Assembly (NCBI RefSeq): GCF_000392435.1
Contig: NC_021219.1
Location: 960,001-992,000, forward strand
DNA from: Candidatus Saccharimonas aalborgensis
GTDB lineage: Bacteria; Patescibacteriota; Saccharimonadia; Saccharimonadales; Saccharimonadaceae
Direction: 5' to 3'
DNA length: 32,000 nucleotides
Shown in pieces: positions 2,864-28,040 of this stretch. The stretch's first letter is position 1. Every line of letters begins with the position of its first letter. A model generated the notes under the pieces. It was not told where the DNA came from. It searched no databases and saw only the letters and a list, made by a program, of their open reading frames with translations. The translations under genes and the position numbers were made by a program.

Positions 2864-4462
2864 ATGAAACTAGCAAGAGCAGTTATTATTGGAGGCATCG
2901 TAGCGTTGTTGTCGCTCGTTGTACTCGGACATCTTGAGGGTGATAATGCCCTAGCGCTCAACCCAAGTGCGAGAGACTGTGACAACAATTCGATTATCTA
3001 TTGTGGTGCTATTACGCCTGATGAGCTAGCCACAAAATATGCTCAAAATAAAACCGGTGATTTGCCTGCTCTGTATAGCCATTATGGTATCAGCGCGACG
3101 ATGATCAACGCAAAGTCTCAAAAACAAGGCTATGTTACAAAAGCCGGCGACGTCTACTACAACGGCAAAGTTGTCGCAAAAAAAGCCATCAGCGTGGGCC
3201 GGCAGTACAATACCGGTAGTTGGGCGGTTGGCATCGACGGTCGCACCTATTATGAGCGCTATACTGGCACAAATTACGCTGCCGGAGTTGACGCGATCGC
3301 CGTTCATATTTGGTTCGATGCTAATGGCAAGTTTGTCGCCGCGGTTATGTACTCATGTGGCAATGCGCTTATCGCAACGCCTGTCGAAGTACCGACCGTC
3401 GCCTGTGACACGCTCACTGTTGAAAAGATCAGCCGTACACAATATCGTTTGACCGGCAAAGCACACGCAACTGGGGGTGCTACCATTAAGGCGATTCACT
3501 ATTATGCATTTGACTCAGTTAGCAAGCCAGTGGTGGGAGTAGCAGGTCCCGATGGACAGTCGACAAGCACCGTGACAATGACCATTCCTAATCCCGGAAC
3601 CTATAAGCTTCAAGCGATTGCTCTCACGAGTATGGGCAATACATCGAGCGATGGGTGTACCAAATCTGTCGTTGTCGATCAAGAACCCTGCCCTATTCCG
3701 GGCAAAGAGAATTTGCCAAAGAACAGCCCGCAATGTGTCGAGGATAAGCCCGGTGTTTCGATCACAAAGATGGTCAACAATGCCGAGCATCAGACGGTCC
3801 TTGTTGGTAGTATCTATGAGTATGAGATTTCAGTAAAAAATACCGGCAATGTGCCGCTCAAAGATGTTGTTGTGACTGATACGGCGCCGGCGGGGGTTGC
3901 CTTTATTTCAGCCAGTAGTGGTGAGATAACGGGCGGCACATGGCGCAACACGCTACCTACACTCGCTGTTGGCGAGTCACTCAGTTTCACCATTGCGGCA
4001 AAGATCGCCGCGTACAAGGCTGGTGTCATCAAGAACATTGCTTGTGTTGAAACGCCGACTGTACCTGGCGGCAATCCGGATGATTGTGACGATGCGACGG
4101 TCGAGACAGTTCGCATGATTGACGTGTGCGATTTGCGTTCACACACGATTGTTCGGATTAATGAAAAAGACTTTAATGGTGATCACATGACAAAAGACGT
4201 GTCGCAATGTGAAGACCTCAAGGTCTGTCGTCTGAGCGACAAGACAGTCGTTACTATCAAGAAAAGTCAATTTGACGCTCAGCTTTACTCAAAAACGCTC
4301 AATGACTGTGTGCCTAAGCCTCAGCCTACTCCCCCCGTAACTCCACCCACCGTCGAACTTCCTCATACCGGTATCATCGATACGTTCGGGAGCAGTCTTG
4401 GACTTGGAAGCCTGGTTGGTGCAAGTCACTACTACGTTGCGAGCCGTCGGTCGGTGCGTTAG
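2864..4462 (+). CDS. LPxTG-type sortase-anchored surface protein with DUF11/CARDB-like repeat
   Basis: The track ORF starts at 2798. The ATG at 2864 has GAGGAGG 6 nt upstream and opens with a signal/TM segment, MKLARAVIIGGIVALLSLVVLG. The C-terminus has LPHTG (4358-4372), a hydrophobic stretch and an RRSVR tail. The middle has a DUF11-like segment, ISVKNTGNVPLKDVVVTD. Confidence 0.75.
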   Translation: MKLARAVIIGGIVALLSLVVLGHLEGDNALALNPSARDCDNNSIIYCGAITPDELATKYAQNKTGDLPALYSHYGISATMINAKSQKQGYVTKAGDVYYNGKVVAKKAISVGRQYNTGSWAVGIDGRTYYERYTGTNYAAGVDAIAVHIWFDANGKFVAAVMYSCGNALIATPVEVPTVACDTLTVEKISRTQYRLTGKAHATGGATIKAIHYYAFDSVSKPVVGVAGPDGQSTSTVTMTIPNPGTYKLQAIALTSMGNTSSDGCTKSVVVDQEPCPIPGKENLPKNSPQCVEDKPGVSITKMVNNAEHQTVLVGSIYEYEISVKNTGNVPLKDVVVTDTAPAGVAFISASSGEITGGTWRNTLPTLAVGESLSFTIAAKIAAYKAGVIKNIACVETPTVPGGNPDDCDDATVETVRMIDVCDLRSHTIVRINEKDFNGDHMTKDVSQCEDLKVCRLSDKTVVTIKKSQFDAQLYSKTLNDCVPKPQPTPPVTPPTVELPHTGIIDTFGSSLGLGSLVGASHYYVASRRSVR

Positions 4463-4491
4463 TCCGGTGTGGTAAATACAAGCAAAAAATT

Positions 4492-4566
4492 TGGCAGGGG
4501 AGACAGGACTCGAACCTGCAACCAACGGTTTTGGAGACCGCTACTCTACCATTGAGCCACTCCCCT
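4492..4566 (-). tRNA. tRNA-Trp (anticodon CCA), CCA end encoded
   Basis: Hand-folded cloverleaf. Acceptor aggggag/ctcccct, anticodon arm gcggt-CTCCAAA-accgt, T arm gcagg-ttcgagt-cctgt. Confidence 0.9.
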
Positions 4567-4668
4567 CTACGAACACATATTGTAACAGAAAAGCCCCAAC
4601 CTCACTAGCTGAGATTTCCACAGATTCAAGAATGCTTAAAAATTAAGTCATATTTTTTGTACAATCTG

Positions 4669-4698
4669 TTGCAAAAGATACGACGCACAGCGTATACT
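4669..4698 (+). promoter_or_regulatory. candidate sigma70-type promoter of the glucan operon
   Basis: TTGCAA (4669-4674), 18-nt spacer, TATACT (4693-4698). Lies 64 nt upstream of the ATG at 4762. Confidence 0.4.
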
Positions 4699-4761
4699 GG
4701 TTATGAATACTTCTAATCAACACGAGAGGGGTACGTTAGGCAGGCCGTCTAATCTATAAAC

Positions 4762-5991
4762 ATGAACATACTGATGCTAGGGTGGGAGCTTCCACCTCAC
4801 TATGTCGGAGGTATGGGTGTCGTCTGTGACCAACTTACCAAACAAATGGTCGCTGATGGTGCTGATATCGAATTTGTTCTGCCTTTTAGGGCTGATTTTT
4901 CGGCTATCACGCACATGAAGGTGACGGCGGCAATAGATCAAGATGCGGAAACCTTGATGAAAAGCGGCGGTACCTACGATTCGACGAAGTTTGAGGTGAT
5001 TCGAAAGGACGGATCGAGCCAGATACGGACACTGTATGAGCAGGTCAACGCCTTTGCGCAAAACATCGGTCACGCTGTCGATTTTGGACGATTTGATGTT
5101 ATTCACGTTCACGACTGGTTGACGCTTCGTGCGGGTATCGAGGCAAAGCGCCAGAGCGGGCTCCCCCTCTTTGTGCATATTCATGCTACCGAGTACGATC
5201 GTGCTGGCGGTAAAGAGGGTAACCCACTGGTACGTGAAATTGAATATATCGGGTTACACATGGCGGACCATGTCTTTGCCGTTAGCGAACGCACCAAGCA
5301 AACCCTCATCGATCAGTATGATATTCCTGCCGAAAAGATTACGGTCGCGCGTAATGTCATGGAGATATCGCCCAAGCTCATCAATGAGTCACGTGAGACC
5401 TATCAGTACATCCAGGCGATGCGCGATGAGGGCTATAAGGTTGTGGTAAATGCAGGGCGGATGACTGTCCAAAAAGGTCTGGTGTTTTTGCTTCAAACGG
5501 CACGCCAAGTAATCGATCGAAACCCCAAAACGCTCTTTCTTTTTGTTGGTGGCGGCGAACAGATACCGGAGCTGCAACAGATAGCCAGTGATCTTGGCAT
5601 CGCAAAAAACGTTATTTTCACGGGACGAGTTGAAGGAATCGGCAAAGCATGGCGCGATGCATTTCGCGTCTCAGACTTGTATGTCATGCCTTCTGTCTCT
5701 GAGCCTCTCGGTATGGTCCCCTATGAAGCAATCTCCTACGGTACTCCCGCGCTTGTGTCGCGACAGTCTGGTATCAGCGAAGCGCTTGTCAATGTGCTCA
5801 AGGCTGATTATTGGGATACTCACCGCATGGCCGATCAGATAATAGCTGTTCTCACCCACCAATCGCTCCATGATACCCTGCTCAAAAATGCGCAGGAGGA
5901 GATCACGCGTCATACATGGGCCCCTGTTTCAAGCACAATTAAGAGACAGTATCACCATGTCATCAACCTCAGGAAAGGACAACCATCATGA
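4762..5991 (+). CDS. glycosyltransferase, glycogen-synthase-like (GT4/GT5 type)
   Basis: 409 aa. N-terminus MNILMLGWELPPHYVGGMGVV and GT-B style C-terminal half (PSVSEPLGMVPYEA). First gene of an operon with GH57 and GH15. Confidence 0.7.
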   Translation: MNILMLGWELPPHYVGGMGVVCDQLTKQMVADGADIEFVLPFRADFSAITHMKVTAAIDQDAETLMKSGGTYDSTKFEVIRKDGSSQIRTLYEQVNAFAQNIGHAVDFGRFDVIHVHDWLTLRAGIEAKRQSGLPLFVHIHATEYDRAGGKEGNPLVREIEYIGLHMADHVFAVSERTKQTLIDQYDIPAEKITVARNVMEISPKLINESRETYQYIQAMRDEGYKVVVNAGRMTVQKGLVFLLQTARQVIDRNPKTLFLFVGGGEQIPELQQIASDLGIAKNVIFTGRVEGIGKAWRDAFRVSDLYVMPSVSEPLGMVPYEAISYGTPALVSRQSGISEALVNVLKADYWDTHRMADQIIAVLTHQSLHDTLLKNAQEEITRHTWAPVSSTIKRQYHHVINLRKGQPS

Positions 5992-7238
5992 GTCAACGAG
6001 CGATTGTGCTCTACATGCACGTACATCAACCGTTTCGTATTCGTCCCTATAGTATCTTTGACGCAGGTACTGATCATAATTATTTTGATGCTCCCGACGG
6101 GTCGCGAACCAGCAACCGCGATATCTTGCTGAAAGTTGCTGAGAAATCGTATATCCCGACGAACGAATACCTTATGCGGATGATCGAAACATATCCGGAG
6201 TTTCGTTTATCTATCTCTATTACCGGTACTATCATCGAACAGTTTGAACGGTATGCTCCTGAGGTTTTGGAAAGTTTCCAGCGTCTGGTTGCAACAGGCC
6301 GTGTCGAAATTGTTGCCGAAACCTATTATCATAGTCTGGCTTTTTTCTACGACCGTGATGAGTTTCAGCGTCAAGTTGACATGCATCGACAGAAAATTGA
6401 GGAAGTGTTTGGAGTGACACCAACTGCGTTCCGAAATACAGAGCTTGCCTACAATAATGATCTTGCAGCATGGGCAGACAATGCTGGATACAAAGTAATT
6501 TTGAGCGAAGGATGGGATCCGGTGTTGGGTTGGCGTAGTCCAAACTTTGTTTATCGCCCGACCGGCACCCAGACTATTAGACTGCTGACAAAGAATTACA
6601 AGCTAAGTGATGATATCGCCTTTCGATTTAGTAACCGCGAGTGGAATGAGTTTCCGCTGACAGTCGATAAGTATATGGACTGGGTAAACGTGTCGTGGCG
6701 AGAGCCGCTCATCAATCTATTTATGGATTATGAGACATTTGGTGAGCATCAGTGGGCGGATAGTGGCATTTTTGAGTTTATGGAGGAGTTGCCAAAACAA
6801 TGGTTAGCAAAACACGATCATACATTTATGACAGTAAGCGAAGCTGCTGAGGCGTTTGAGGCAGTGGATGTTGTCGATTGCCCCGAAACCATAACATGGG
6901 CAGATACAGAGCGTGATCTGACGGCGTGGCTTGGCAATCAAATGCAGCAAGAAGCGATGAAATTTGTCTATGAACTTGGTCCAAAGGTGCTTGCTAGCGA
7001 CAACCTCGAACTCATCGGCGATTGGCGTAAATTGCAGACGAGTGACAACCCGTATTATATGTGTACAAAATATTTCAAAGATGGCGATGTGCACGCCTAC
7101 TTCAGTCCGTATGAATCACCCTATGATGCCTTCATGTATTATATGAATGCCCTTCATGATGTGCAGGCACGGCTGAGTCAGACCGCAGAAGAGCTAAAGG
7201 TGGAAGAGACGGATGGCGAGACCAATTGTACTGAGTAA
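5988..7238 (+). CDS. glycoside hydrolase family 57 protein (alpha-glucan acting)
   Basis: 416 aa. GH57 region-1 HQP motif (LYMHVHQPFR), TELAY and DYETFGEH regions. Start overlaps the upstream stop (ATGA). Confidence 0.75.
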   Translation: MSQRAIVLYMHVHQPFRIRPYSIFDAGTDHNYFDAPDGSRTSNRDILLKVAEKSYIPTNEYLMRMIETYPEFRLSISITGTIIEQFERYAPEVLESFQRLVATGRVEIVAETYYHSLAFFYDRDEFQRQVDMHRQKIEEVFGVTPTAFRNTELAYNNDLAAWADNAGYKVILSEGWDPVLGWRSPNFVYRPTGTQTIRLLTKNYKLSDDIAFRFSNREWNEFPLTVDKYMDWVNVSWREPLINLFMDYETFGEHQWADSGIFEFMEELPKQWLAKHDHTFMTVSEAAEAFEAVDVVDCPETITWADTERDLTAWLGNQMQQEAMKFVYELGPKVLASDNLELIGDWRKLQTSDNPYYMCTKYFKDGDVHAYFSPYESPYDAFMYYMNALHDVQARLSQTAEELKVEETDGETNCTE

Positions 7239-9165
7239 TGGTGAACTCCATGTTGGTATCAATAAGTACGCGCTTGTCCATGACTTCTATTACCCGTATG
7301 TTGGGTTAGAAAACCATGCTGCAGGACGCTCGCTTCGCCACCATGTCGGCATATGGGCGGATGGCACGATCTCATGGCTCGATGACGATACGTGGGAGTT
7401 TGACTATAGCTATCCTCACCAGGCACTTATAGGACACATCGTGGCGCGAAACCACACGTTAGGTATCATACTTGAGTTTGATGATACCGTTGATGCTGAG
7501 ATGAGTGTATTTATGCGAAACGTACACATTATCAATATGCGTGAAACTGTACGTGATCTTCGACTGTTTTTTCATCAAGCGTTTGTGATAGGTGACTCAC
7601 GCAGCAATACTGACACCGCTCAATATTTGCCGGATGCCGATGCGATATTGCATTATCGCGGACGCCGTGCATTTATTGTTTCGGCCCAGGACGACAATCA
7701 TGCCGTCTTTGATCAGTACAGTATCGGGCTATTTGATATCGAAGGCAGAGAAGGTACGTTTCGTGATGCTGACGACGGTGAACTTAGCATGTGCCCAGTT
7801 GAGCACGGTCGAGTTGACTCAACGATACGATTTAAGCTTGACCTGCAACCACATAGTTCGCTACGTGTGCACTATTGGATCGCATGCGGTTCGTCTACGA
7901 GAGAAGCCCTTTATATCCATCGTCAAGTGGCAAAACAAGGCATCAACGCACGGCTTGATCGCACCAACAAATGGTGGCATGAATGGCTCAAACCAGCCAA
8001 GGCTACCGCCGAAAAAATTGATGCTGCGCATCGCGACATGTTCATTAAATCAGTGATGCTCGTTAAGTCTCATATCGATAAACGCGGAGCAGTTATCGCC
8101 AGTACCGACACGGCCATGCTCAACTATTGGCGAGATGCCTATGGGTATTGTTGGCCGCGCGATGGGGCCTACGCACTCTGGCCACTAATCCGAATGGGTT
8201 ATAAAGACGAGGCTTACCGTTTCTTTGAGTTTTGCCGCCGTGGGCTGAGCTCTGGTGGCTATCTGATGCATAAGTATCGTGCCGACGGTGCACTGGGGAG
8301 TAGTTGGCATCCCTATGTCCATGAACATGGCGTGGTTGCGCCCCCAATTCAGGAGGATGAGACTGCGCTGACGCTGTTTGTATTTAGCCAATATTATCAC
8401 CTTCATGAAGATGAGAATCTGCTCAAAGAGTTTTATGAACCAATGATTTTGCCAATGGCAAATTTTTTGGCATCATATATCGATACTCGGACTGGGCTTC
8501 CAAAGCCGACCTATGATCTGTGGGAGGAAACATTTATCACTTCGACATATACGACGGCCGTGGTTTATGCGGCACTTCAGGCAGCCGCCGATTTGGCTGA
8601 GAAGCGTGATGATGCGGATAGTGTTGTCGCCTGGAGGGCGGCGGCTGATGATATCCGCTTGGCTGCGGTGAAGCATTTGTACAATGCTGACGTTGGAGTG
8701 TTTCGAAAGGGTCTTATAGTCAACGAAGCCGATGAGGTTGTATACAATGAGACAATTGATCTATCGAGCTTTTTTGGGTCATTTATGTTTGGGCTATTCG
8801 CCGTTGATAGCGATGAAGTAAGTCAATCGGCCAAAACAATCCAGCGCGTCTTTGGTCTTGATCAAGCCCACCCAGGTGTTCCTCGATATCAAAACGATAA
8901 CTATCGTCGTGCCCATGCGGAGACACCAGGAAATCTTTGGTTCGTTACCTCATTGTGGATGGCCCAATATTACCTCGAGACAAGTTTACCCGACGAAGCG
9001 ATGAATGTACTCAACTGGGTACGCGATTCGGCGTGGGCAACAGGCGTGATGACGGAACAACTCGACCCTCTCACACACAGAGAAGTATCGATTGCCCCCC
9101 TAACATGGAGTCAGGCTGAGTATCTGTCGACTCTCCTCGATACCATTCCCGAGGCGGTCGTATGA
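7213..9165 (+). CDS. glycoside hydrolase family 15 protein (glucoamylase/glucodextranase-like)
   Basis: 650 aa. YCWPRDGAYALWP and an (alpha/alpha)6-type C-terminal half ending PLTWSQAEY. Confidence 0.75.
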   Translation: MARPIVLSNGELHVGINKYALVHDFYYPYVGLENHAAGRSLRHHVGIWADGTISWLDDDTWEFDYSYPHQALIGHIVARNHTLGIILEFDDTVDAEMSVFMRNVHIINMRETVRDLRLFFHQAFVIGDSRSNTDTAQYLPDADAILHYRGRRAFIVSAQDDNHAVFDQYSIGLFDIEGREGTFRDADDGELSMCPVEHGRVDSTIRFKLDLQPHSSLRVHYWIACGSSTREALYIHRQVAKQGINARLDRTNKWWHEWLKPAKATAEKIDAAHRDMFIKSVMLVKSHIDKRGAVIASTDTAMLNYWRDAYGYCWPRDGAYALWPLIRMGYKDEAYRFFEFCRRGLSSGGYLMHKYRADGALGSSWHPYVHEHGVVAPPIQEDETALTLFVFSQYYHLHEDENLLKEFYEPMILPMANFLASYIDTRTGLPKPTYDLWEETFITSTYTTAVVYAALQAAADLAEKRDDADSVVAWRAAADDIRLAAVKHLYNADVGVFRKGLIVNEADEVVYNETIDLSSFFGSFMFGLFAVDSDEVSQSAKTIQRVFGLDQAHPGVPRYQNDNYRRAHAETPGNLWFVTSLWMAQYYLETSLPDEAMNVLNWVRDSAWATGVMTEQLDPLTHREVSIAPLTWSQAEYLSTLLDTIPEAVV

Positions 9166-11156: not shown

Positions 11157-11567
11157 TTAGTCTGCCGACAATCGTGAGCAACCGTTTGTGTTGTCACTCC
11201 GCATTGCTTTTTCAATTGGTATCATTCTGCAGTGAATTTTCTCCATGCCGAGTAGTTTTGCTTTGCACATCCTGTGAAGTCCATCAAATGGTACTAGCTT
11301 ATTGACGCGTGGGTTTAGCCCCAGGTCGATTGGGTATGACAGATCAGCAGTTTCTATTCTTTTGAAATGGTCGGGGTCGAGCTCGGGATTAGCCATGACT
11401 TCGTTTGGCGTTAGCGGATGCTCATCAGTGCCAAACCAATCAACGTCCAACAGCCATTCAATTTGCGATAGTTCAATGTCTGTGACAGGAGCATCTATCT
11501 TCCAGATGGCCTTTTCGTTCCACTCAAACGGAAAGAAGTAGTCTTCTTGTTTTAATTTTGGCTTCAT
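11157..11567 (-). CDS. hypothetical protein with possible ParB/Srx-like motif
   Basis: 136 aa. LSYPIDL...LVPFDGLHRMCKAKLLGMEKIHCRMIP resembles the DGxHR core of ParB-like domains. Assignment is tentative. Confidence 0.4.
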   Translation of the reverse strand: MKPKLKQEDYFFPFEWNEKAIWKIDAPVTDIELSQIEWLLDVDWFGTDEHPLTPNEVMANPELDPDHFKRIETADLSYPIDLGLNPRVNKLVPFDGLHRMCKAKLLGMEKIHCRMIPIEKAMRSDNTNGCSRLSAD

Positions 11568-11606
11568 ACGCGCTAACCCGTTTCTTAATATGTGGGAAAT
11601 TCAATC

Positions 11607-11682
11607 TGGAGCCACGACTGGGATTTGAACCCAGGACCCCGTCCTTACCATGGACGTGCTCTACCAACTGAGCTATCGCGGC
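11607..11682 (-). tRNA. tRNA-Thr (anticodon GGU), CCA encoded
   Basis: Hand fold. Acceptor gccgcga/tcgtggc, anticodon arm cgtcc-ATGGTAA-ggacg, T arm ctggg-ttcaaat-cccag. Confidence 0.9.
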
Positions 11683-11806
11683 ATATTATTTGTCCTAAAA
11701 AAGTGTACCACTTATAGAGAGAAAGTTCCAGTATTGCTCGACTCTAGTTTGCATAATCTTGCGTTTCCAAGACACTTGTTTCGAATGCGCGGTACACCGT
11801 GGGGAG

Positions 11807-14411: not shown

Positions 14412-15570
14412 GAGGTATCTCTGGAAATAGTTGTATAAACTCGTCAGGAATTGGTGCGGTGAATGTTTGCCGGGTACTCGCCCTTGGCGTAATCTCTAGC
14501 TGATACGCGTGCAAAAAGAGGCGGGTGTTTGATTTGCCATATATCCTATCGCCATGGATGGGTGTTCCTAGATGAGCCATATGGACGCGCAACTGGTGGG
14601 TACGTCCCGTGCTCGGATGGAGTAGTACTAGAGACTTTCCTGCTTTCGTTGCGATAACCTCATAGTCAGTACGTGCAGGTTTGCCATTGGGATCAACCCG
14701 AAAGGTGCTGGGGCTCGAAGGATTACGGCCGATCGGAAGATCAATAGTAGCCTTGGGATGCTTCGGTACTCCGTCCACAATAGCCAAGTAGTGCTTGTTT
14801 GCTTTTCTGTCAGAAAACTGACGCTTGAGACGCTGAAACGACTCTAGTGTCCTTGCGCCAACAATAATGCCACTTGTGTCTCTGTCGAGCCGATGGACGA
14901 TACCGGGTCGATTTGTCTCGAGTCCAACTGAGCTATATCGACGGAAAAAGTCAGCAACAGTAAACTCGTCAGACAGTGCACCCTTGGCGTGGGTGAGCAC
15001 GCCTGAAGGCTTGTTGACGACAATGATACCATCGTCGATATACATGATAGGAAGTTCTCGAGCACTGAAGTCGCTCGCTTCAGGAAGAGACACGGCGATG
15101 TAATCTGCTTCACTCACCTCTTGACGCACATTTTTTGCTGGTATTGAGTTGACAGTGACTGCACCGGCCTTGATATGTTTCTGCCAGGTACTTCGACTCG
15201 TGTCTGGGAAGCGTTCAGCGAGGATGATGTCGAGACGTTTCTTATCGCTTTCTTGACGAAACAAATAGACGTCTTTGCCCTTAAATGGCAACCCAAACGT
15301 TGTCAGCTCGCTCACGGCATTTTCAAGTAGCTGACCCTGAATGTTGCTATCCACGATTTTGATCTGATCTACGACGTATTGCTCGTTATCCTCGGCCGTG
15401 TCATCAAACAACACATAGTAGCGAGTTTTTGCGAAACGAAACGAAACAAGCTGGTTTATCGGACGAGGATGGTTTGACCGAAGTTGATCGATTTCTCGTG
15501 GTACGTTCGTCTCACCTGCAATATTAAACCGACGCAAAATTGCTAAGAGGTCTGATGAAGTTACCTTCAT
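14389..15570 (-). CDS. RluA-family pseudouridine synthase (RluD-like) with ~110-aa N-terminal extension
   Basis: 393 aa. S4-like segment RLDIILAERF...AGAVTVN and catalytic motif HRLDRDTSGIIV. Confidence 0.8.
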   Translation of the reverse strand: MKVTSSDLLAILRRFNIAGETNVPREIDQLRSNHPRPINQLVSFRFAKTRYYVLFDDTAEDNEQYVVDQIKIVDSNIQGQLLENAVSELTTFGLPFKGKDVYLFRQESDKKRLDIILAERFPDTSRSTWQKHIKAGAVTVNSIPAKNVRQEVSEADYIAVSLPEASDFSARELPIMYIDDGIIVVNKPSGVLTHAKGALSDEFTVADFFRRYSSVGLETNRPGIVHRLDRDTSGIIVGARTLESFQRLKRQFSDRKANKHYLAIVDGVPKHPKATIDLPIGRNPSSPSTFRVDPNGKPARTDYEVIATKAGKSLVLLHPSTGRTHQLRVHMAHLGTPIHGDRIYGKSNTRLFLHAYQLEITPRASTRQTFTAPIPDEFIQLFPEIPHELSSRL

Positions 15571-21978: not shown

Positions 21979-22203
21979 TTAATCACGTGCGCGGAAAACG
22001 ATTCTGCCCTTTGTGAGATCATAAGGGGTTAGCTCGACTTCCACGATATCGCCCGGTACCAGACGGATATAATGCTTGCGCATCTTGCCGCTAATATGAG
22101 CGATGATACTTAGGCCGTTTTCCAATTCCACCCTAAACTGAGTATTAGGCAGTGCTTCCACCACCTTGCCTCGCAGTTTAATAACTTCTTTGGTACTCGC
22201 CAT
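21979..22203 (-). CDS. infA: translation initiation factor IF-1
   Basis: 74 aa. [60 protein letters not shown]. Confidence 0.95.
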
Positions 22204-22219
22204 AGATATACAGCATTTT

Positions 22220-22248
22220 ATTATACGGTATCATATGACAAAAGTAAA
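22220..22248 (-). promoter_or_regulatory. candidate promoter for infA-rpmJ-rpsM...
   Basis: The - strand reads TTTACT (22248-22243), 17-nt spacer, TATAAT (22225-22220). Lies 16 nt upstream of the infA ATG. Confidence 0.5.
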
Positions 22249-22305
22249 CAGATTTAACAGAGAATCGCGGTATAGTTAGTCTACCGCAACTAAATTGATA
22301 GTTTT

Positions 22306-22333
22306 ATTGTAGCGAATATCGTTCGTGAGTCAA
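22306..22333 (-). promoter_or_regulatory. second candidate - strand promoter, divergent from the 22353 promoter
   Basis: The - strand reads TTGACT (22333-22328), 16-nt spacer, TACAAT (22311-22306). Its -35 box and the + strand -35 box form the inverted repeat agtcaagt...acttgact. Confidence 0.4.
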
Positions 22334-22352
22334 GTCAAAAGAGTGAGGATAC

Positions 22353-22381
22353 TTGACTTTTATATAAATATAGTGTAAAAT
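22353..22381 (+). promoter_or_regulatory. near-consensus promoter of G+C-rich unit A
   Basis: TTGACT (22353-22358), 17-nt spacer, TAAAAT (22376-22381), in AT-rich DNA. Confidence 0.6.
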
Positions 22382-22434
22382 AGTACACGAGTCCATTGTA
22401 GTTTGACAACCCCAACCCCCTGAAAGGATACCTG

Positions 22435-22785
22435 ATGGGAAAGAGATGGCCTGGCATGGGTCGCCTGCGCGCAAAGCGCAAAGCGACTGCCCAGCTCGCC
22501 GCTGCTAAGGCAGCGGCGGCGGTGAGGGCTCAGGAGGTCGTGAACGACCTCCTGTATCCCCACCAACGGGAGCACGGTACTTCGCTTCTCGAGCGGCTGC
22601 ACCCAGAGCCGCTCGACGTGTCGGATCACTCCGGCACGCCCAACCCTCGACGTCGTGTGCGCCATCGGGCAGACCGTCGGCGACGGCTGCCCGAGGCGCT
22701 TGTCACCGAGCGGCCCTGCGCCGCTCGCGGCCACCACCGTGGCTGCGAGTGTGCTGACTACGTCTGGGAGCCGCTTCACGCATGA
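22435..22785 (+). CDS. orphan G+C-rich ORF A (116 aa, Arg/Ala-rich); coding status uncertain
   Basis: AAAGGA lies 7 nt before the ATG. Hand-counted GC1/GC2/GC3 is about 79/55/72%. The codon-aligned antisense ORF (22360-22779) is also open. I recognise no motif. Confidence 0.4.
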   Translation: MGKRWPGMGRLRAKRKATAQLAAAKAAAAVRAQEVVNDLLYPHQREHGTSLLERLHPEPLDVSDHSGTPNPRRRVRHRADRRRRLPEALVTERPCAARGHHRGCECADYVWEPLHA

Positions 22786-22813
22786 AGCGTGCTCCCGACA
22801 CCTACAATGGATT

Positions 22814-22850
22814 GGCCCTTACTGCACTCGCGGTAGGGGCCTTTCCTTTG
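22814..22850 (+). terminator. intrinsic terminator of unit A, convergent on the secY 3' end
   Basis: ggcccttac-N10-gtaggggcc (9 bp including one G-U) followed by tttcctttg. Ends 18 nt before the secY stop. Confidence 0.55.
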
Positions 22851-22867
22851 CAGCTACTTTCGAAATA

Positions 22868-24277
22868 TTATTTGTAATCGTCGTACGTCACCATGAGGGC
22901 GCGTGAGTTGACCTGTCGCAGAGTTTCGAGCCCCACTGTCACGACGATGAGAAGACCCGTGCCTCCAATCGCCAAATTGGCAGCGTTGAGCCCTAGTTTG
23001 ACAAAGACATACTCAATGATGAATGGCATCACGGAGATAAAGCCGAGAGCAATAGAACCAAACAGAATTAAGCGATTGACCGTCCGTCCCAGATATTTTT
23101 CGGTCTGAATCCCCGGACGCACTCCCTCGATGAAGCCACCTTGCTTTTGCAGGTTTTCGGCAATCTCATTTGAATTAAAGACGATGCCCGTATAGAAGTA
23201 CGTAAACAATATTACGAGGAGGAAATAGGCAGCCGGATAGATAAATACGCCCAGATCACCACTTGCAAAGGACTGGGCGTTTGGTGCCTGGAACCACTTG
23301 ATAAGATCGGCGCTCAGCTGAGTATACGAGGGGTTATTGGTTGCTTTGAGCACTTGACCTGCAAAGGCAGGGAGGCTGAGAAACGCGACCGCAAAAATCA
23401 CCGGGATAACACCCGCAGCAATGAGCTTGACGGGGAGGATGCTTTTGATACCGCCGTAACTCGTATTGCCAGCGACACGTTTGGCGTAGTTGATAGTGAT
23501 GATACGCTGAGCTTCATTGATTTTAACGAGGAAATACAATATAAAGAGCGATAAAAGACCGATAACAAGTGCTACCCAAAACGCCGTCGGGCTCACCGGT
23601 AGGTCAAACCAGCCAAAGACGCTTAACTTTCCTGCCGTTGTGTCCAATAGCGAGGCGATGACCGTACTGAGGGTTGCTGGTAGCTGACTGATGATACCGG
23701 CAAAAATAATGAGTGAAATACCATTACCAATACCTTGCTCAGTGATGAGCTCTCCTAGCCACATGAGGAGAATGGAACCGGCGGTCATAGCAGTGACGGC
23801 TACTATCCACTCTGTTGGTGTGGTCGTGACAGTACCGGCAGTACTGCCTGCAAGAACTGACTGGCGCAGAATATAGATAATTGCAACAGACTGAATGACT
23901 GCGAGTGGTACGGAGATGATACGCGTCCACTGGTTTATCTTGCGACGGCCAGATTCACCATCCTTATGGAGTTCTTCTAGCTTTGGGATTGCTTTTGTGA
24001 GCAACTGGGTGATGACGCTGGCAGTGATAAACGGACTCATTCCGACCAGGACGATAGACAACTGGCTGAGTGCACCACCGCTCATAAGGTTGAGGAATCC
24101 GCCGAAGTCACTTGAGCCGATCACCGTATCAATGATACTCTTTAGCTTACTCGGTTCAGCAATGGGCACAGGGATATGCGACATGAAACGAAACGCGACG
24201 ATCAGTCCAAAGACGATCAAGAGGCGTTTTTGCATATCACGGTTTTTGAGTGATCGAAGGATAATTTTCCAATTCAT
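22868..24277 (-). CDS. secY: preprotein translocase subunit SecY
   Basis: 469 aa, 10-TM pattern. LNLMSGGALSQLSIVLVGMSPFITASVITQLL and GELITEQGIGNGISLIIFAGI. Confidence 0.95.
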   Translation of the reverse strand: MNWKIILRSLKNRDMQKRLLIVFGLIVAFRFMSHIPVPIAEPSKLKSIIDTVIGSSDFGGFLNLMSGGALSQLSIVLVGMSPFITASVITQLLTKAIPKLEELHKDGESGRRKINQWTRIISVPLAVIQSVAIIYILRQSVLAGSTAGTVTTTPTEWIVAVTAMTAGSILLMWLGELITEQGIGNGISLIIFAGIISQLPATLSTVIASLLDTTAGKLSVFGWFDLPVSPTAFWVALVIGLLSLFILYFLVKINEAQRIITINYAKRVAGNTSYGGIKSILPVKLIAAGVIPVIFAVAFLSLPAFAGQVLKATNNPSYTQLSADLIKWFQAPNAQSFASGDLGVFIYPAAYFLLVILFTYFYTGIVFNSNEIAENLQKQGGFIEGVRPGIQTEKYLGRTVNRLILFGSIALGFISVMPFIIEYVFVKLGLNAANLAIGGTGLLIVVTVGLETLRQVNSRALMVTYDDYK

Positions 24278-24376
24278 ACGGAGTAATTCTGCCTGTTTTC
24301 TGTGCGTTAGATGATACTACTTTACCTACAGTATACAGGACATGTTGCTGCGGTGCTAGCGGATTGTGCCGGATAC

Positions 24377-24405
24377 TTGTACGACATGACGATCTGTTGT
24401 ATAAT
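24377..24405 (+). promoter_or_regulatory. near-consensus promoter of G+C-rich unit B, divergent from secY
   Basis: TTGTAC (24377-24382), 17-nt spacer, TATAAT (24400-24405). Confidence 0.6.
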
Positions 24406-24443
24406 ATGGTTATTGATAGCATTCGTGGGCATGCTTGATCATT

Positions 24444-24458
24444 GACAAGCAAGCATGT
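24444..24458. repeat. left arm of a perfect 15-bp inverted repeat bracketing ORF B
   Basis: gacaagcaagcatgt is the exact reverse complement of 25084-25098. It also forms a local hairpin with catgcttg at 24430-24437. Confidence 0.8.
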
Positions 24459-24548
24459 AGCCTACGGTGCTCCTACGAACTCCTAGCTCACTCGAGCTGG
24501 TGAGAAAAAGACCCTATCAAGACGGGTCACTATGGAAGGAGTTGCCTC

Positions 24549-25004
24549 TTGCCCAAGAAGGTCAAGAATCTGTTCGGTAAGACATTCGGCTACGAAGGAG
24601 GTGTGGTCAACTTTGACGGACATATGGGCATGTTCGTCGGCGACGACAACGAACCCTTCGCCGGACGTGAGGGTGAGCAGGTGGTTCCGTACCCCATTGT
24701 TCCTCCTGCCGGGGAATCGTCGGCTCGTCGGGCACTCGTCGAGCTGGTGAACCAGACGCTTGCGTCGAGGTACGGTTCCAAGTTGGATGGAATCATCGTC
24801 AGCCCACGGATGGCACGAAACCTCTTCCTCGAGGGGCTGATCACGCCGGTCCATCTGGCTGCGGCCATCGAAGAGGCATTCGAGGGAGACCTCGTTCTCG
24901 TCATCCCGGATGTCAACATCGCTGGGCACCTCCTGTACATCGAGGTCGACAGCAACGCCGCGGTGAACTCATTCGCCATCGACCGAAAGGGGTATCTGAT
25001 CTGA
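24549..25004 (+). CDS. orphan G+C-rich ORF B (151 aa), unknown function
   Basis: TTG start with GGAAGGAG (24534-24541) 7 nt upstream. Third codon positions are mostly G/C. Balanced, globular-looking composition. I recognise no motif. Confidence 0.6.
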   Translation: MPKKVKNLFGKTFGYEGGVVNFDGHMGMFVGDDNEPFAGREGEQVVPYPIVPPAGESSARRALVELVNQTLASRYGSKLDGIIVSPRMARNLFLEGLITPVHLAAAIEEAFEGDLVLVIPDVNIAGHLLYIEVDSNAAVNSFAIDRKGYLI

Positions 25005-25023
25005 TGTCGATCCGATCGATGAC

Positions 25024-25057
25024 GAGGGGCGGCGTAGCAGTTTTTGCGCCGCCCCTC
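25024..25057 (+). terminator. 11-bp G+C hairpin after ORF B (no U-tail)
   Basis: gaggggcggcg-N12-cgccgcccctc, a perfect stem. A second small hairpin with a T-rich tail lies at 25104-25125. Confidence 0.4.
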
Positions 25058-25083
25058 AGGGGGGTCTCCGTTACCATCGCTAC

Positions 25084-25098
25084 ACATGCTTGCTTGTC
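25084..25098. repeat. right arm of the perfect 15-bp inverted repeat
   Basis: acatgcttgcttgtc is the reverse complement of 24444-24458. Confidence 0.8.
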
Positions 25099-25134
25099 GC
25101 AATACCCCATAAAGGGGTTTTATTTATATCGTTT

Positions 25135-25569
25135 CTACGCAGCTTGTTCGGAAGCGCGACGAAACACGAGCACTGTATCTGCTTGTGCATCTCGATCTTT
25201 GCGCACAATGGGTAGGGGTAGCTCACCAGCGATCTCTTTGAGTGCTCCCGCAAGAAATAAATCTAAGTCCATTGTTCCTGAAGCAATCTGACGCCACCCT
25301 GTCTCGGAGACAACAACTTTCCCATCGAGGAAGTCTATAAGTTTCTCTGGCAAAAAGCCCTCTATTGCGCCGATAGTCTCGTCGCTCACCGTCCAACCTG
25401 CATCTCTGGCCAGATGCTCTAGGCGCCCCACCTGTGCGCCAATGAACTGCCTGCGGAGATTTCCGTACCCCTCGCGAATGGCACGTGCTAGTCGCTCACG
25501 ACCAGCTTGCTCGTAGTTGCGCCGATGTTCATTCCAATCGATCGCTATTTCGGGTACGCGTGGCATCAT
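25135..25569 (-). CDS. orphan 144-aa protein between rplO and secY
   Basis: GGAGGACAG lies directly upstream of ATGATG. It sits downstream of the rplO terminator. I recognise no motif. Confidence 0.6.
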   Translation of the reverse strand: MMPRVPEIAIDWNEHRRNYEQAGRERLARAIREGYGNLRRQFIGAQVGRLEHLARDAGWTVSDETIGAIEGFLPEKLIDFLDGKVVVSETGWRQIASGTMDLDLFLAGALKEIAGELPLPIVRKDRDAQADTVLVFRRASEQAA

Positions 25570-25626
25570 CTGTCCTCCAGTTTAGCTACTAACAAACTAT
25601 AGCATGCTTTGTCACACCATCTATAA

Positions 25627-25658
25627 CAAAAGTATGCGCCAATACTGCGCATACTTTT
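25627..25658 (-). terminator. intrinsic terminator immediately after rplO
   Basis: agtatgcgc-caatact-gcgcatact, a 9-bp stem extended by A/T pairs. The - strand tail is UUUUGUUAU. Lies 23 nt after the rplO stop. Confidence 0.65.
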
Positions 25659-25680
25659 GGCAAAACCAAGCGAGTTGTCG

Positions 25681-26160
25681 CTATTTTTTATCTGTAGCTT
25701 CAGCTTCTTTGGCTGATTTTTGGATGGGTGTTGCGACTTTATCGAAACTACCACCTGCCTTTTCTATAGCAGCCACAACGTTCCTTGATGCGCCCTGAGT
25801 CTTGAGAGTGATCTTGCTCCCCAGTTCACCACGAGCGATTACCTTGACGGTATGGAACGGTGTCGCGATAAGATTTGCTTCGTACAGAGCATAGTTATCG
25901 ACGATACCCTTGAGTCCTTCAAGCCGATCAAGGTAGACAACCTGAGCTGGTGTTCGCAAACTTTTGAATCCTCGTGATTTTGGCACCGCAGTAGCGATGC
26001 CGTTTTGGCCACCCTGAAACATCGGACGCAGCTTCTTGCCAGTACGAGCATTCTGACCTTTTGTTCCGCGACCTGCTGTCTTGCCACCACCGGCAGCAAT
26101 TCCGCGGCCGACGCGCTTGCGATCCTTGTGCGTACTCATCTGGAGATCATTGTATTTCAT
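25681..26160 (-). CDS. rplO: 50S ribosomal protein L15
   Basis: 159 aa. RVGRGIAAGGGKTAGRGTKGQNAR. Start overlaps the rpsE stop (TAATG). Confidence 0.95.
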   Translation of the reverse strand: MKYNDLQMSTHKDRKRVGRGIAAGGGKTAGRGTKGQNARTGKKLRPMFQGGQNGIATAVPKSRGFKSLRTPAQVVYLDRLEGLKGIVDNYALYEANLIATPFHTVKVIARGELGSKITLKTQGASRNVVAAIEKAGGSFDKVATPIQKSAKEAEATDKK

Positions 26161-26822: not shown

Positions 26823-27175
26823 TAAAACTCCAATCCTTCTTTACGTGCTGCATCTGCAAGTGCTCCCAGTCGGCCAGCATACTGGCGACCATTGCGGTCA
26901 AACACAACAGTGGTTATTTTTACTTTCTTAGCCTTCTTTGCAATTTCGGTACCGATACTGGCGCACTTTTCAGTCATCCTACCAGTCAGTTTGCTGCCTA
27001 CTGAGGTTGCGCTCGCAAGTGTATGTTGCTTGTCGTCATCAATTAACTGTGCGCTAACGTGCATATTGCTGATAACAACACTTAGTCGTGGTCTCTCGGC
27101 AGTACCGTGTACTTTTGCGCGAACACGACTCTTACGGAGGCTTCGGTTAAGCAGTTTTTTTGCTAAATTAGTCAT
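26822..27175 (-). CDS. rplR: 50S ribosomal protein L18
   Basis: 117 aa. RKSRVRAKVHGTAERPRLSVVISNMHVSAQLIDD ... FDRNGRQYAGRLGALADAARKEGLEF. Confidence 0.95.
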   Translation of the reverse strand: MTNLAKKLLNRSLRKSRVRAKVHGTAERPRLSVVISNMHVSAQLIDDDKQHTLASATSVGSKLTGRMTEKCASIGTEIAKKAKKVKITTVVFDRNGRQYAGRLGALADAARKEGLEF

Positions 27176-27195
27176 TACTTCTTCCCTGCCTTTCC
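27161..27195 (-). repeat. copy B of the duplicated rplF/rplR junction (functional rplR start)
   Basis: The - strand reads gga aag gca ggg aag aag taATG act aat tta gca. 28 of 35 nt identical to 27289-27323. Confidence 0.75.
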
Positions 27196-27303
27196 AGTCT
27201 GTGTATGAGACAAATCTACGGTTTTTCTCATCGCGCGGCGCACAGGAGTAAATCCTGATGCTCCGGCTGCTCTTTTCCCTTGGGTTATAGCTAGATCAGA
27301 CAT
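27175..27303 (-). CDS. 42-codon ORF exactly filling the rplF-rplR spacer
   Basis: My translation is MSDLAITQGKRAAGASGFTPVRRAMRKTVDLSHTQTGKAGKK. The ATG overlaps the rplF stop (TAATG) and the stop overlaps the rplR ATG (TAATG). Not in the track (under 60 aa). Confidence 0.4.
   Translation of the reverse strand: MSDLAITQGKRAAGASGFTPVRRAMRKTVDLSHTQTGKAGKK
27205..27278 (-). repeat. copy 2 of the ~73-nt structured element (rplF-rplR spacer)
   Basis: Aligns with 12666-12737. Flanks are conserved and the hairpin stems differ in a compensatory way. Confidence 0.7.
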
Positions 27304-27857: not shown

Positions 27858-28040
27858 TTATTCAAGTTCTTCATCGTCGTTAACCGGAACATAAGTATTA
27901 AACATGTGCAATACCTGCTCTCGATGCTCTAGCGTTATGCCCAGCAAGGAAGATCCAGCAATTTTCTTGTAAAACTCAGTTGCCGCAGTATCGAGATAGT
28001 CTCGTTGCTCGGGTGTTAATTCTGCTCGTGCCTTGACCAT
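27858..28040 (-). CDS. orphan 60-aa ORF between rpsH and rplF
   Basis: The ATG lies 1 nt after the rpsH stop and the stop lies 18 nt before the rplF ATG. Helical-looking sequence with an acidic tail, NDDEELE. Confidence 0.5.
   Translation of the reverse strand: MVKARAELTPEQRDYLDTAATEFYKKIAGSSLLGITLEHREQVLHMFNTYVPVNDDEELE

Follow-up and report, generated by a model that had tools for sequence, protein, structure and literature searches.

Introduction

Long-range complements around a functional RNA segment of several hundred nucleotides (nt) are familiar from the RNase III processing stems that flank rRNA genes and phage early mRNAs. Closer in layout are two bacterial mRNAs whose untranslated regions (UTRs) pair with each other. 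In Bacillus subtilis, a 14-bp duplex linking the 5' UTR to the 3' UTR of the hbs mRNA modulates access of RNase Y to the leader (Braun, Durand and Condon, 2017, PMC5737220), and in Staphylococcus aureus the 3' UTR of the icaR mRNA pairs with its 5' UTR, with consequences for how the mRNA is translated and cleaved by RNase III (Ruiz de los Mozos et al., 2013, PMC3868564). Here we analyse a stretch of 32,000 nt from Candidatus Saccharimonas aalborgensis (contig NC_021219.1, positions 960,001 to 992,000; hereafter the window, to which all coordinates refer unless another contig is named), in which a 151-aa open reading frame (ORF B) lies antisense in the gap between rplO and secY. Together with its predicted promoter, UTRs and terminator ORF B makes up unit B, and a perfect 15-bp inverted repeat places one arm in each of the predicted UTRs. 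The reading that we favour, tentatively and with its chances a little short of even, is that unit B is a self-contained accessory unit in whose mRNA the two arms would pair into a panhandle, in competition with a local hairpin of the leader, and would thereby tune the fate of the mRNA.

Results

Layout of unit B

ORF B (24549-25004, + strand) is a genuine protein-coding gene. Between alleles the ratio of nonsynonymous to synonymous substitution rates (dN/dS) is 0.27-0.55, the differences are distributed 36/16/48 over codon positions 1/2/3, and the allele indels (9 and 3 nt) are in frame. The Shine-Dalgarno (SD) sequence GGAAGGAG (24534-24541, + strand) stands seven bases ahead of the TTG start codon (24549-24551), and both its AGGAG and the TTG are invariant across all alleles. 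The - strand also has two long frames (148 and 170 aa), but these are shadow ORFs such as G+C-rich DNA produces: the codon-position pattern best fits the + frame. Their frames merge in an allele with a 19-nt deletion that is described below.

Upstream of ORF B and divergent from secY is a predicted sigma-70-type promoter (24377-24405, + strand), composed of TTGTAC (24377-24382), a 17-nt spacer and TATAAT (24400-24405). The TATAAT is invariant in 10 alleles, and the -35 element reads TTGTAC in nine of them and TTGCGA in L016. This element matches the consensus at only three of six positions and the promoter was therefore not listed by a consensus scan; as read from the sequence, it lies outside the repeat, where the initial annotation had put it. 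The predicted structured 5' UTR of ~137 nt (24412-24548, + strand) contains a local hairpin (24418-24471), whose helix 1 joins 24418-24430 to 24460-24471 and whose helix 2 joins AUGCUUG (24431-24437) to CAAGCAU (24450-24456). The left arm of the inverted repeat, GACAAGCAAGCATGT (24444-24458), finds its local pairing partner in CATGCTTG (24430-24437). Two copies of CCTACG (24462-24467 and 24473-24478) and two further hairpins (24480-24504 and 24510-24528) complete the leader. In the 3' UTR, a G+C-rich 11-bp hairpin (25024-25034/25047-25057, + strand) has no U tract on either strand. It is followed by the right arm, ACATGCTTGCTTGTC (25084-25098), which is the exact reverse complement of the left arm and is separated from it by 625 nt, and then by a weak terminator-like hairpin, ACCCC-ATAAA-GGGGT with the T tract TTTATTTATA (25104-25125, + strand), which is conserved (4 of 27 columns variable). 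Given the position of this last hairpin, the right arm falls inside the predicted transcript, which, judging from promoter and terminator, would be ~715 nt long. The repeat bracketing ORF B, its SD and the G+C hairpin, as well as the two CCTACG copies and the two small leader hairpins, had all been described in the initial annotation and are indeed present.

From this layout we propose the following mechanism. The promoter would drive a transcript consisting of the structured leader, ORF B, the G+C hairpin and the weak terminator. The left arm, ~33 nt from the predicted 5' end, would pair with the right arm just 5' of the terminator, closing the mRNA as a panhandle. Such a long-range duplex would exclude the local 5' hairpin, leaving the leader with two alternative conformations; this competition had been foreseen, and in the folds both structures use the same bases of the left arm and are thus mutually exclusive. 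By analogy with hbs and icaR, the duplex might determine how long the mRNA lasts, by masking sites for ribonucleases at the transcript ends or by forming new ones. Pairing in the cell, the positions of the transcript ends and an effect on decay or translation are what we infer from the layout, conservation and folding.

Conservation of the repeat arms

In 400 simulations of the window with a first-order Markov model (Markov-1), perfect non-overlapping 15-mer inverted repeats within 1 kb arose 0.0375 times per window and were present in 2.25% of the simulations, close to the rough expectation of ~0.03 given earlier. At this rate ~1.2 such repeats are expected by chance in a 1-Mb genome, which keeps the repeat by itself from being decisive. 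That these particular 5' and 3' UTRs should share a 15-mer complement has an a-priori probability of ~1e-5. Within the 32-kb window there is no further copy of the 15-mer at up to three mismatches. In IMG/VR the 15-mer has 62 matches, which is consistent with chance. The same 15-mer occurs within six copies of a ~35-nt hairpin repeat, TAGAAAAGACAAGCAAGCATGTCTTTTCTA, in a viral contig (L068, IMGVR_UViG_3300048637_000152, 3384-7197), which we judged to be an unrelated coincidence.

Across 9-10 alleles, no column of the left arm is variable (0/15) and two are in the right arm (2/15). The share of variable columns is 16-25% in the 5' UTR outside the arm, 15% in the terminator, 25% in the N-terminal and 45% in the C-terminal coding sequence, 41% in the G+C hairpin, 57% in the 26 nt between this hairpin and the right arm, and 95% in the 19 nt after the stop codon. 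Compared with the other non-coding columns, the arms are significantly less variable (2/30 versus 81/237, or 34%; Fisher p = 0.0014), and in this alignment they are the most conserved non-coding columns of unit B.

The repeat could nonetheless be functionless, a chance complement kept by the close kinship of the strains. The expectation of about one such repeat per genome is compatible with this, as are the lack of covariation and the mid-helix mismatch of one allele group (see below). Against it stand the significantly lower variability of the arms compared with the non-coding sequence around them, and the recurrence, in a second unit across secY, of a placement just inside both predicted transcript ends. 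The low UTR-by-UTR probability, together with the conservation of both arms as islands across diverged alleles, indicates that the repeat is more than chance, and we consider a functionless repeat unlikely.

Predicted structure of the transcript

The 5' UTR folds at -51.9 kcal/mol (z = -3.0). Its helices are conserved: across 10 alleles 98% of cells are paired, and all one-sided changes (7/7) keep pairing, mostly via G-U, which corresponds to a C-A mismatch on the - strand. In the local 5' hairpin, an A-to-G change in L010 and L016 gives a G-U pair in helix 2 and a C-to-U change in five alleles gives one in helix 1. The hairpin at 24480-24504 carries three changes in L016, all of which preserve pairing (A-U to G-U, U-G to C-G and U-A to U-G), and the hairpin at 24510-24528 has an invariant stem and a variable loop. 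In the 3' UTR, the G+C hairpin shows one compensatory change from G-C to A-U (L018) and one + strand-specific G-U change (L022). Thirteen of the 15 pairs of the long-range helix never vary, and the right-arm variant C25098T yields a G-U pair on the + strand only.

The long-range duplex is thermodynamically favoured. It is part of the minimum-energy fold of the whole transcript (-300 kcal/mol, z = -5.4; the coding sequence of ORF B alone folds with z = -1.4), and cofolding the two UTRs gains 14-23 kcal/mol in 9/9 alleles versus a mean of 7 for shuffled 3' UTRs. Cofolding also suggested pairing of the SD with an anti-SD in the 3' UTR (CUCC, 25068-25071), which we rejected as it is not conserved among alleles. 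At gathering thresholds Rfam matched nothing but tRNAs, and up to an E value of 5 it gave no credible match across 22100-25800.

Unit A, a second unit across secY

On the far side of secY lies unit A (22353-22841, + strand), also antisense, with a promoter at 22353-22381 (TTGACT-17-TAAAAT), an Arg-rich ORF of 116 aa at 22435-22785 and a strong terminator at 22814-22841. NCBI calls no gene in this region, which is 69% G+C (22340-22867). The ORF has a C-terminal Cys/His motif and a dN/dS of 0.26-0.65, with codon position 2 the least variable. A 10-bp perfect repeat brackets it, TCCATTGTAG (22392-22401) in the 5' UTR and CTACAATGGA (22802-22811) in the 3' UTR, and an A-to-G change of the right arm in three alleles leaves a U-G pair on the + strand. 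We count this recurrence of a 5'/3' bracket, with its + strand wobble variant, in favour of the panhandle. The initial annotation had seen in the two units a shared architecture and possibly a related origin. The layout is indeed shared (promoter, bracket repeat, G+C-rich ORF and terminator); common origin finds no such correspondence, as neither the proteins nor the repeat arms of units A and B have sequence in common. The sole IMG/VR match of the unit A protein is spurious, being a shadow frame of a transporter gene.

A metagenome-assembled genome (L002, 7352-8037 and upstream) has unrelated sequence in place of the 5' half of unit A, and several of its alpha-operon genes are called as fragments; these may be assembly errors or real decay.

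Evidence against the panhandle and alternative roles of the arms

Several observations weigh against a panhandle. The alleles are closely related, and 52 of 500 shuffles attain their covariation score, which is not significant. The long-range helix is without any compensatory (double-sided) change, its pairing being thus only predicted, and G25092A (L014, L015 and L032) introduces a mid-helix C-A mismatch on the + strand, where the - strand would have G-U. The transcript ends are predictions as well, from a weak -35 element and a terminator with a stem of just 5 bp. For the unit A duplex, the cofolding gain does not stand out from that of shuffled sequence, 17% of shuffles doing as well. The distant relatives of ORF B in L023 lack an inverted repeat that would bracket them. 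Finally, the arms persist in a widespread allele in which ORF B is frameshifted. In this allele, found in L018 (2429-2874), L028 (~5001-5446), L029 and L031 and including the GTDB species representative of Ca. Saccharimonas aalborgensis, the 19-nt deletion splits the ORF into overlapping frames of 60 and 88 aa, and the UTRs and both arms are retained. The ORF B protein is therefore dispensable, or functional in two pieces.

The arms might instead act on RNA of the opposite strand. Read-through from rplO or from a neighbouring 144-aa gene towards secY would then form a giant stem-loop around the 625-nt spacer, as a processing site (e.g. for RNase III) or as a means to bring the secY leader beside the upstream message. 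Processing stems form in a comparable way around rRNA, and secY is normally part of the spc operon; we detected no strong secY promoter. Being perfectly Watson-Crick, the repeat can pair as well on one strand as on the other; the panhandle is also present in the - strand fold (z = -4.6), and G25092A pairs on the - strand only. However, what looks like a good bidirectional terminator stands 3' of rplO (25627-25659), the + strand fold is more stable by 21 kcal/mol, and C25098T and all wobble changes of the neighbouring UTR helices fit the + strand only. We regard a role on the - strand as improbable.

To much the same degree we doubt that the arms are DNA sites, for example operators at which a sequence-specific DNA-binding protein would loop the locus or co-regulate it. 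The sequences of both arms are conserved without covariation, and CATGCTTG-N12-CAAGCATG at 24430-24457 resembles a palindromic operator. An imperfect third copy of the arm, GCATGCTTTGTC (25601-25612), stands within the promoter region of the 144-aa gene and occurs only in alleles that have this gene. On the other hand, no DNA-binding protein was identified, and the ORF B and 144-aa proteins, both acidic, are without a family match. In the palindrome and the neighbouring helices the changes are of the G-U type that an RNA would give, and the repeat of unit A differs in sequence at the same UTR placement.

Very improbable is that the repeat is the relic or active end of a DNA rearrangement, be it the terminal inverted repeats of a non-autonomous mobile cassette or the recombination sites of an invertible segment. 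Its 15 perfect base pairs qualify as terminal inverted repeats of a miniature inverted-repeat transposable element (MITE) or insertion sequence (IS), they bracket a G+C-rich, foreign-looking gene while excluding its promoter, and the ORF B family is present at a different locus in another lineage. The region is also prone to recombination: there is an adjacent indel, and L010 has an IS close by. Nevertheless, the flanks (...GATCATT before the left arm, GCAATAC... after the right) share no target-site duplication and there is no transposase in the unit or the 32-kb window, in agreement with the initial annotation, nor is there a recombinase; neither ORF B nor its neighbours have a transposase domain, and the 15-mer is not repeated elsewhere in the window. 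Likewise, no site-specific recombinase was found among the called genes at the locus or the scanned ORFs of the window. The segment has the same orientation in all ~30 contigs, and the inverted junction had no matches in assembled metagenome contigs, a comparison of low power given that only three true normal junctions occur there. One match from the metagenome scan (L030) was a chance one. Divergence is concentrated in the 3' half of the ORF and not bounded by the arms.

The locus does not look like a target of a diversity-generating retroelement, given that no template-like direct repeat lies within 5 kb and that third codon positions dominate the variation, with a dN/dS of 0.3 in the variable C-terminal half. 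Nor do ORF B and the 144-aa gene look like a toxin-antitoxin or defence pair: they are convergent, the 144-aa gene is absent from several strains that keep ORF B, and neither matches PADLOC, Pfam or NCBIfam.

The ORF B protein and its relatives

The ORF B protein is acidic (pI 5.0) and predicted to be cytoplasmic. A search of 5.8 billion proteins retrieved just six allele clusters with 62-97% identity, all located between secY and rplO. When 1.84 billion representatives were searched exhaustively with a HMMER profile, a single true distant relative emerged in addition, P0011 (138 aa, ~30% identity, hhalign probability 96.8); a further hit, the 2920-aa Flg_new repeat protein P0010 (E = 2e-5), was spurious (hhalign probability 0.3). 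In L023, from another Saccharimonas-like lineage, P0011 and a tandem paralogue stand side by side, flanked by prfB and a Mur ligase gene, and the motif AR.LFLEG[LV]I.P.HL is common to ORF B and these relatives. No match to ORF B was found among Pfam, PHROG, PADLOC, NCBIfam and PDB profiles, and tblastn against 50,697 phage genomes and scans of IMG/VR gave nothing that would point to a phage origin. With the distant relative in the alignment, AlphaFold2 (AF2) produced a model with a mean predicted local distance difference test (pLDDT) score of 75.6 and a predicted template modelling (pTM) score of 0.75; on close alleles alone the pLDDT was 38 and the model was discarded. The retained model has a beta-meander at the N terminus, from which a disordered linker leads to a confident alpha/beta domain at the C terminus; Foldseek found no fold match in PDB or BFVD. 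These searches bear out the initial annotation in assigning no family, housekeeping or other, to ORF B, and its description as a genuine globular protein agrees with a dN/dS of ~0.3, the codon-position pattern, the conserved AGGAG and TTG and the AF2 model. The ORF B family is previously undescribed, very narrow and restricted to Saccharimonas-like bacteria.

In L023, four orphan genes lie on the + strand within a - strand housekeeping block (7442-7855, 8001-8417, 11260-11712 and 14973-15257 of that contig). Two are the relatives of ORF B, and third-position G+C is 0.73-0.92 over the four. The ORF B paralogues have AT-rich promoters and G+C hairpins, and the P0011 gene has a 15-nt perfect direct repeat, one copy at codons 19-23 (8055-8069) and the other in the 3' arm of the terminator (8455-8469).

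Base composition and variation of ORF B

ORF B and unit A are the only G+C peaks of the 32-kb window (61% and 69% versus ~49%). Their third-position G+C is 0.73 and 0.71, and that of the L023 paralogues 0.86-0.92, versus 0.39-0.58 in neighbouring genes, as the initial annotation had noticed for ORF B. Such values would fit genes taken up horizontally from a donor of high G+C, or a recombination hot spot with GC-biased gene conversion; a donor was seen neither in the phage collections nor elsewhere.

ORF B evolves fast, and the genes on either side of it hardly differ among strains. Between the window and L010, the synonymous divergence (dS) is 0-0.01 in rplO and 0.1 in secY, and in ORF B it reaches 0.40 overall and 0.58 in the C-terminal two-thirds. 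As dN/dS is ~0.3 in both halves, there is no sign of positive selection, and the pattern of divergence indicates recombination among old alleles. The alleles are mosaic: that of L032 (WBZP01000193.1, 2960-3693) joins L018-like, window-like and L010-like segments, which on alignment we read as direct evidence of recombination inside ORF B. NCBI CP065015.1 (GCA_016700355.1, a genome of 1.007 Mb) codes for an identical ORF B protein, as do many metagenome contigs from wastewater and aquatic sources, and the source labels of close relatives of the genes next to ORF B are Candidatus Saccharimonas aalborgensis.

Genomic neighbourhood

The local gene order on the - strand is ...rplF-rplR-rpsE-rplO, the 144-aa ORF, [ORF B, +], secY, [unit A, +], infA-rpmJ-rpsM-rpsK-rpsD-rpoA-rplQ. 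From rplF to rplQ, ORF B and unit A are the only genes on the + strand. Directly 3' of rplO, a 13-bp perfect hairpin (25627-25659), preceded by an A tract and followed by a T tract, has the appearance of a bidirectional terminator. Its loop differs among strains and its stem has a compensatory G-C to A-T change in L016, an indication that the operon is interrupted upstream of unit B; the spc operon would then be interrupted ahead of secY.

The orphan gene of 144 aa (25135-25569, - strand) is convergent with ORF B and falls within a strain-variable indel spanning ~25126-25620. It is absent from L010-L015, L019 and L032, which keep ORF B, both repeat arms and what is left of this gene's promoter region. 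Its presence and absence among otherwise near-identical strains, with the promoter remnant left behind, suggest deletion. The initial annotation had raised co-occurrence of ORF B with this gene, and the strain distribution shows ORF B to be independent of it. Where present, the 144-aa gene is under purifying selection (dN/dS = 0.12). Homologues of its protein are confined to Ca. Saccharimonas aalborgensis, with no family match and none in phage genomes or IMG/VR.

In one strain group (L010 and L012, 2621-3586), a transposase gene of the rve family (integrase-type IS) is inserted between infA and unit A. An apparent deletion in L008 proved to be a scaffold gap of Ns. Small called ORFs between ribosomal protein genes also differ among strains (window 27858-28040 and 27175-27303; ribosomal protein operon of L001, L002, L005 and L010): 60 versus 44 aa between rpsH and rplF, 42 aa between rplF and rplR, 81 aa between rplW and rplB, 66 aa between rplV and rpsC, and 35 aa between rplE and rplX. 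They are candidate mini-genes or spacer artefacts.

Discussion

ORF B is strain-variable, recombining and dispensable, which suggests an accessory and not a housekeeping role. Given the high G+C of its third positions and its mosaic alleles, ORF B is a candidate for a horizontally exchanged accessory function, and so is unit A; that ORF B acts in host or phage interaction is speculation on our part. Food for speculation, too, is whether ORF B, unit A and the four L023 orphans belong to one class. They may have in common G+C-rich third positions, a promoter and terminator of their own, an orientation antisense to their neighbours and, often, matching sequences at the transcript ends. Such a class would consist of self-contained accessory cassettes, obtained from, or passed to and fro with, partners of high G+C (actinobacterial hosts or their phages) and lodged in core operons, with end-pairing mRNAs that insulate them against strong convergent transcription and with fast-evolving products at work in the interaction of the episymbiont with host or phage. 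We consider this broader picture a long shot.

Independently of the role of the arms, spc/alpha, the most conserved bacterial gene cluster, tolerates antisense, recombining, strain-variable orphan genes in Saccharimonas. If the pairing is real, an ultrasmall episymbiont that is uncultivated and stands outside the Firmicutes would provide a natural mRNA panhandle conserved in evolution, and would do so twice, on the two sides of secY. This would suggest that end-pairing is a more general bacterial means to control or insulate small stand-alone genes. On present evidence, the gene of unit B is an orphan still to be characterised, and its RNA feature, though plausible, is unproven.

How unusual is unit B? 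A layout in which the ends of the mRNA pair is known from few other bacterial mRNAs, and unit B is real but only moderately unusual. With hbs it shares complementary segments in the 5' and 3' UTRs, which are predicted ones in unit B; they match at 15 positions out of 15, where mRNAs of this type have ~14 bp or more. It differs from hbs in that the duplex, known in unit B from prediction alone, competes with a local 5' hairpin, and in that its protein is an orphan whereas that of hbs is a nucleoid protein. As in icaR, the 5' and 3' UTRs of one mRNA base-pair, by prediction in the case of unit B; in icaR the 3' UTR masks the Shine-Dalgarno sequence, whereas the conserved duplex of unit B would lie ~75 nt upstream of it. 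The RNase III processing stems are longer than the arms of unit B, stand in stable-RNA operons and have known cleavage sites. As for the protein, genomes of Patescibacteria, or the candidate phyla radiation (CPR), are known for lineage-specific hypothetical proteins, and ORF B resembles these in being small, without a Pfam family and limited to a narrow clade. Unlike the usual CPR hypotheticals, it combines high third-position G+C with mosaic alleles, an antisense position in the spc/alpha cluster and a sibling unit across secY.

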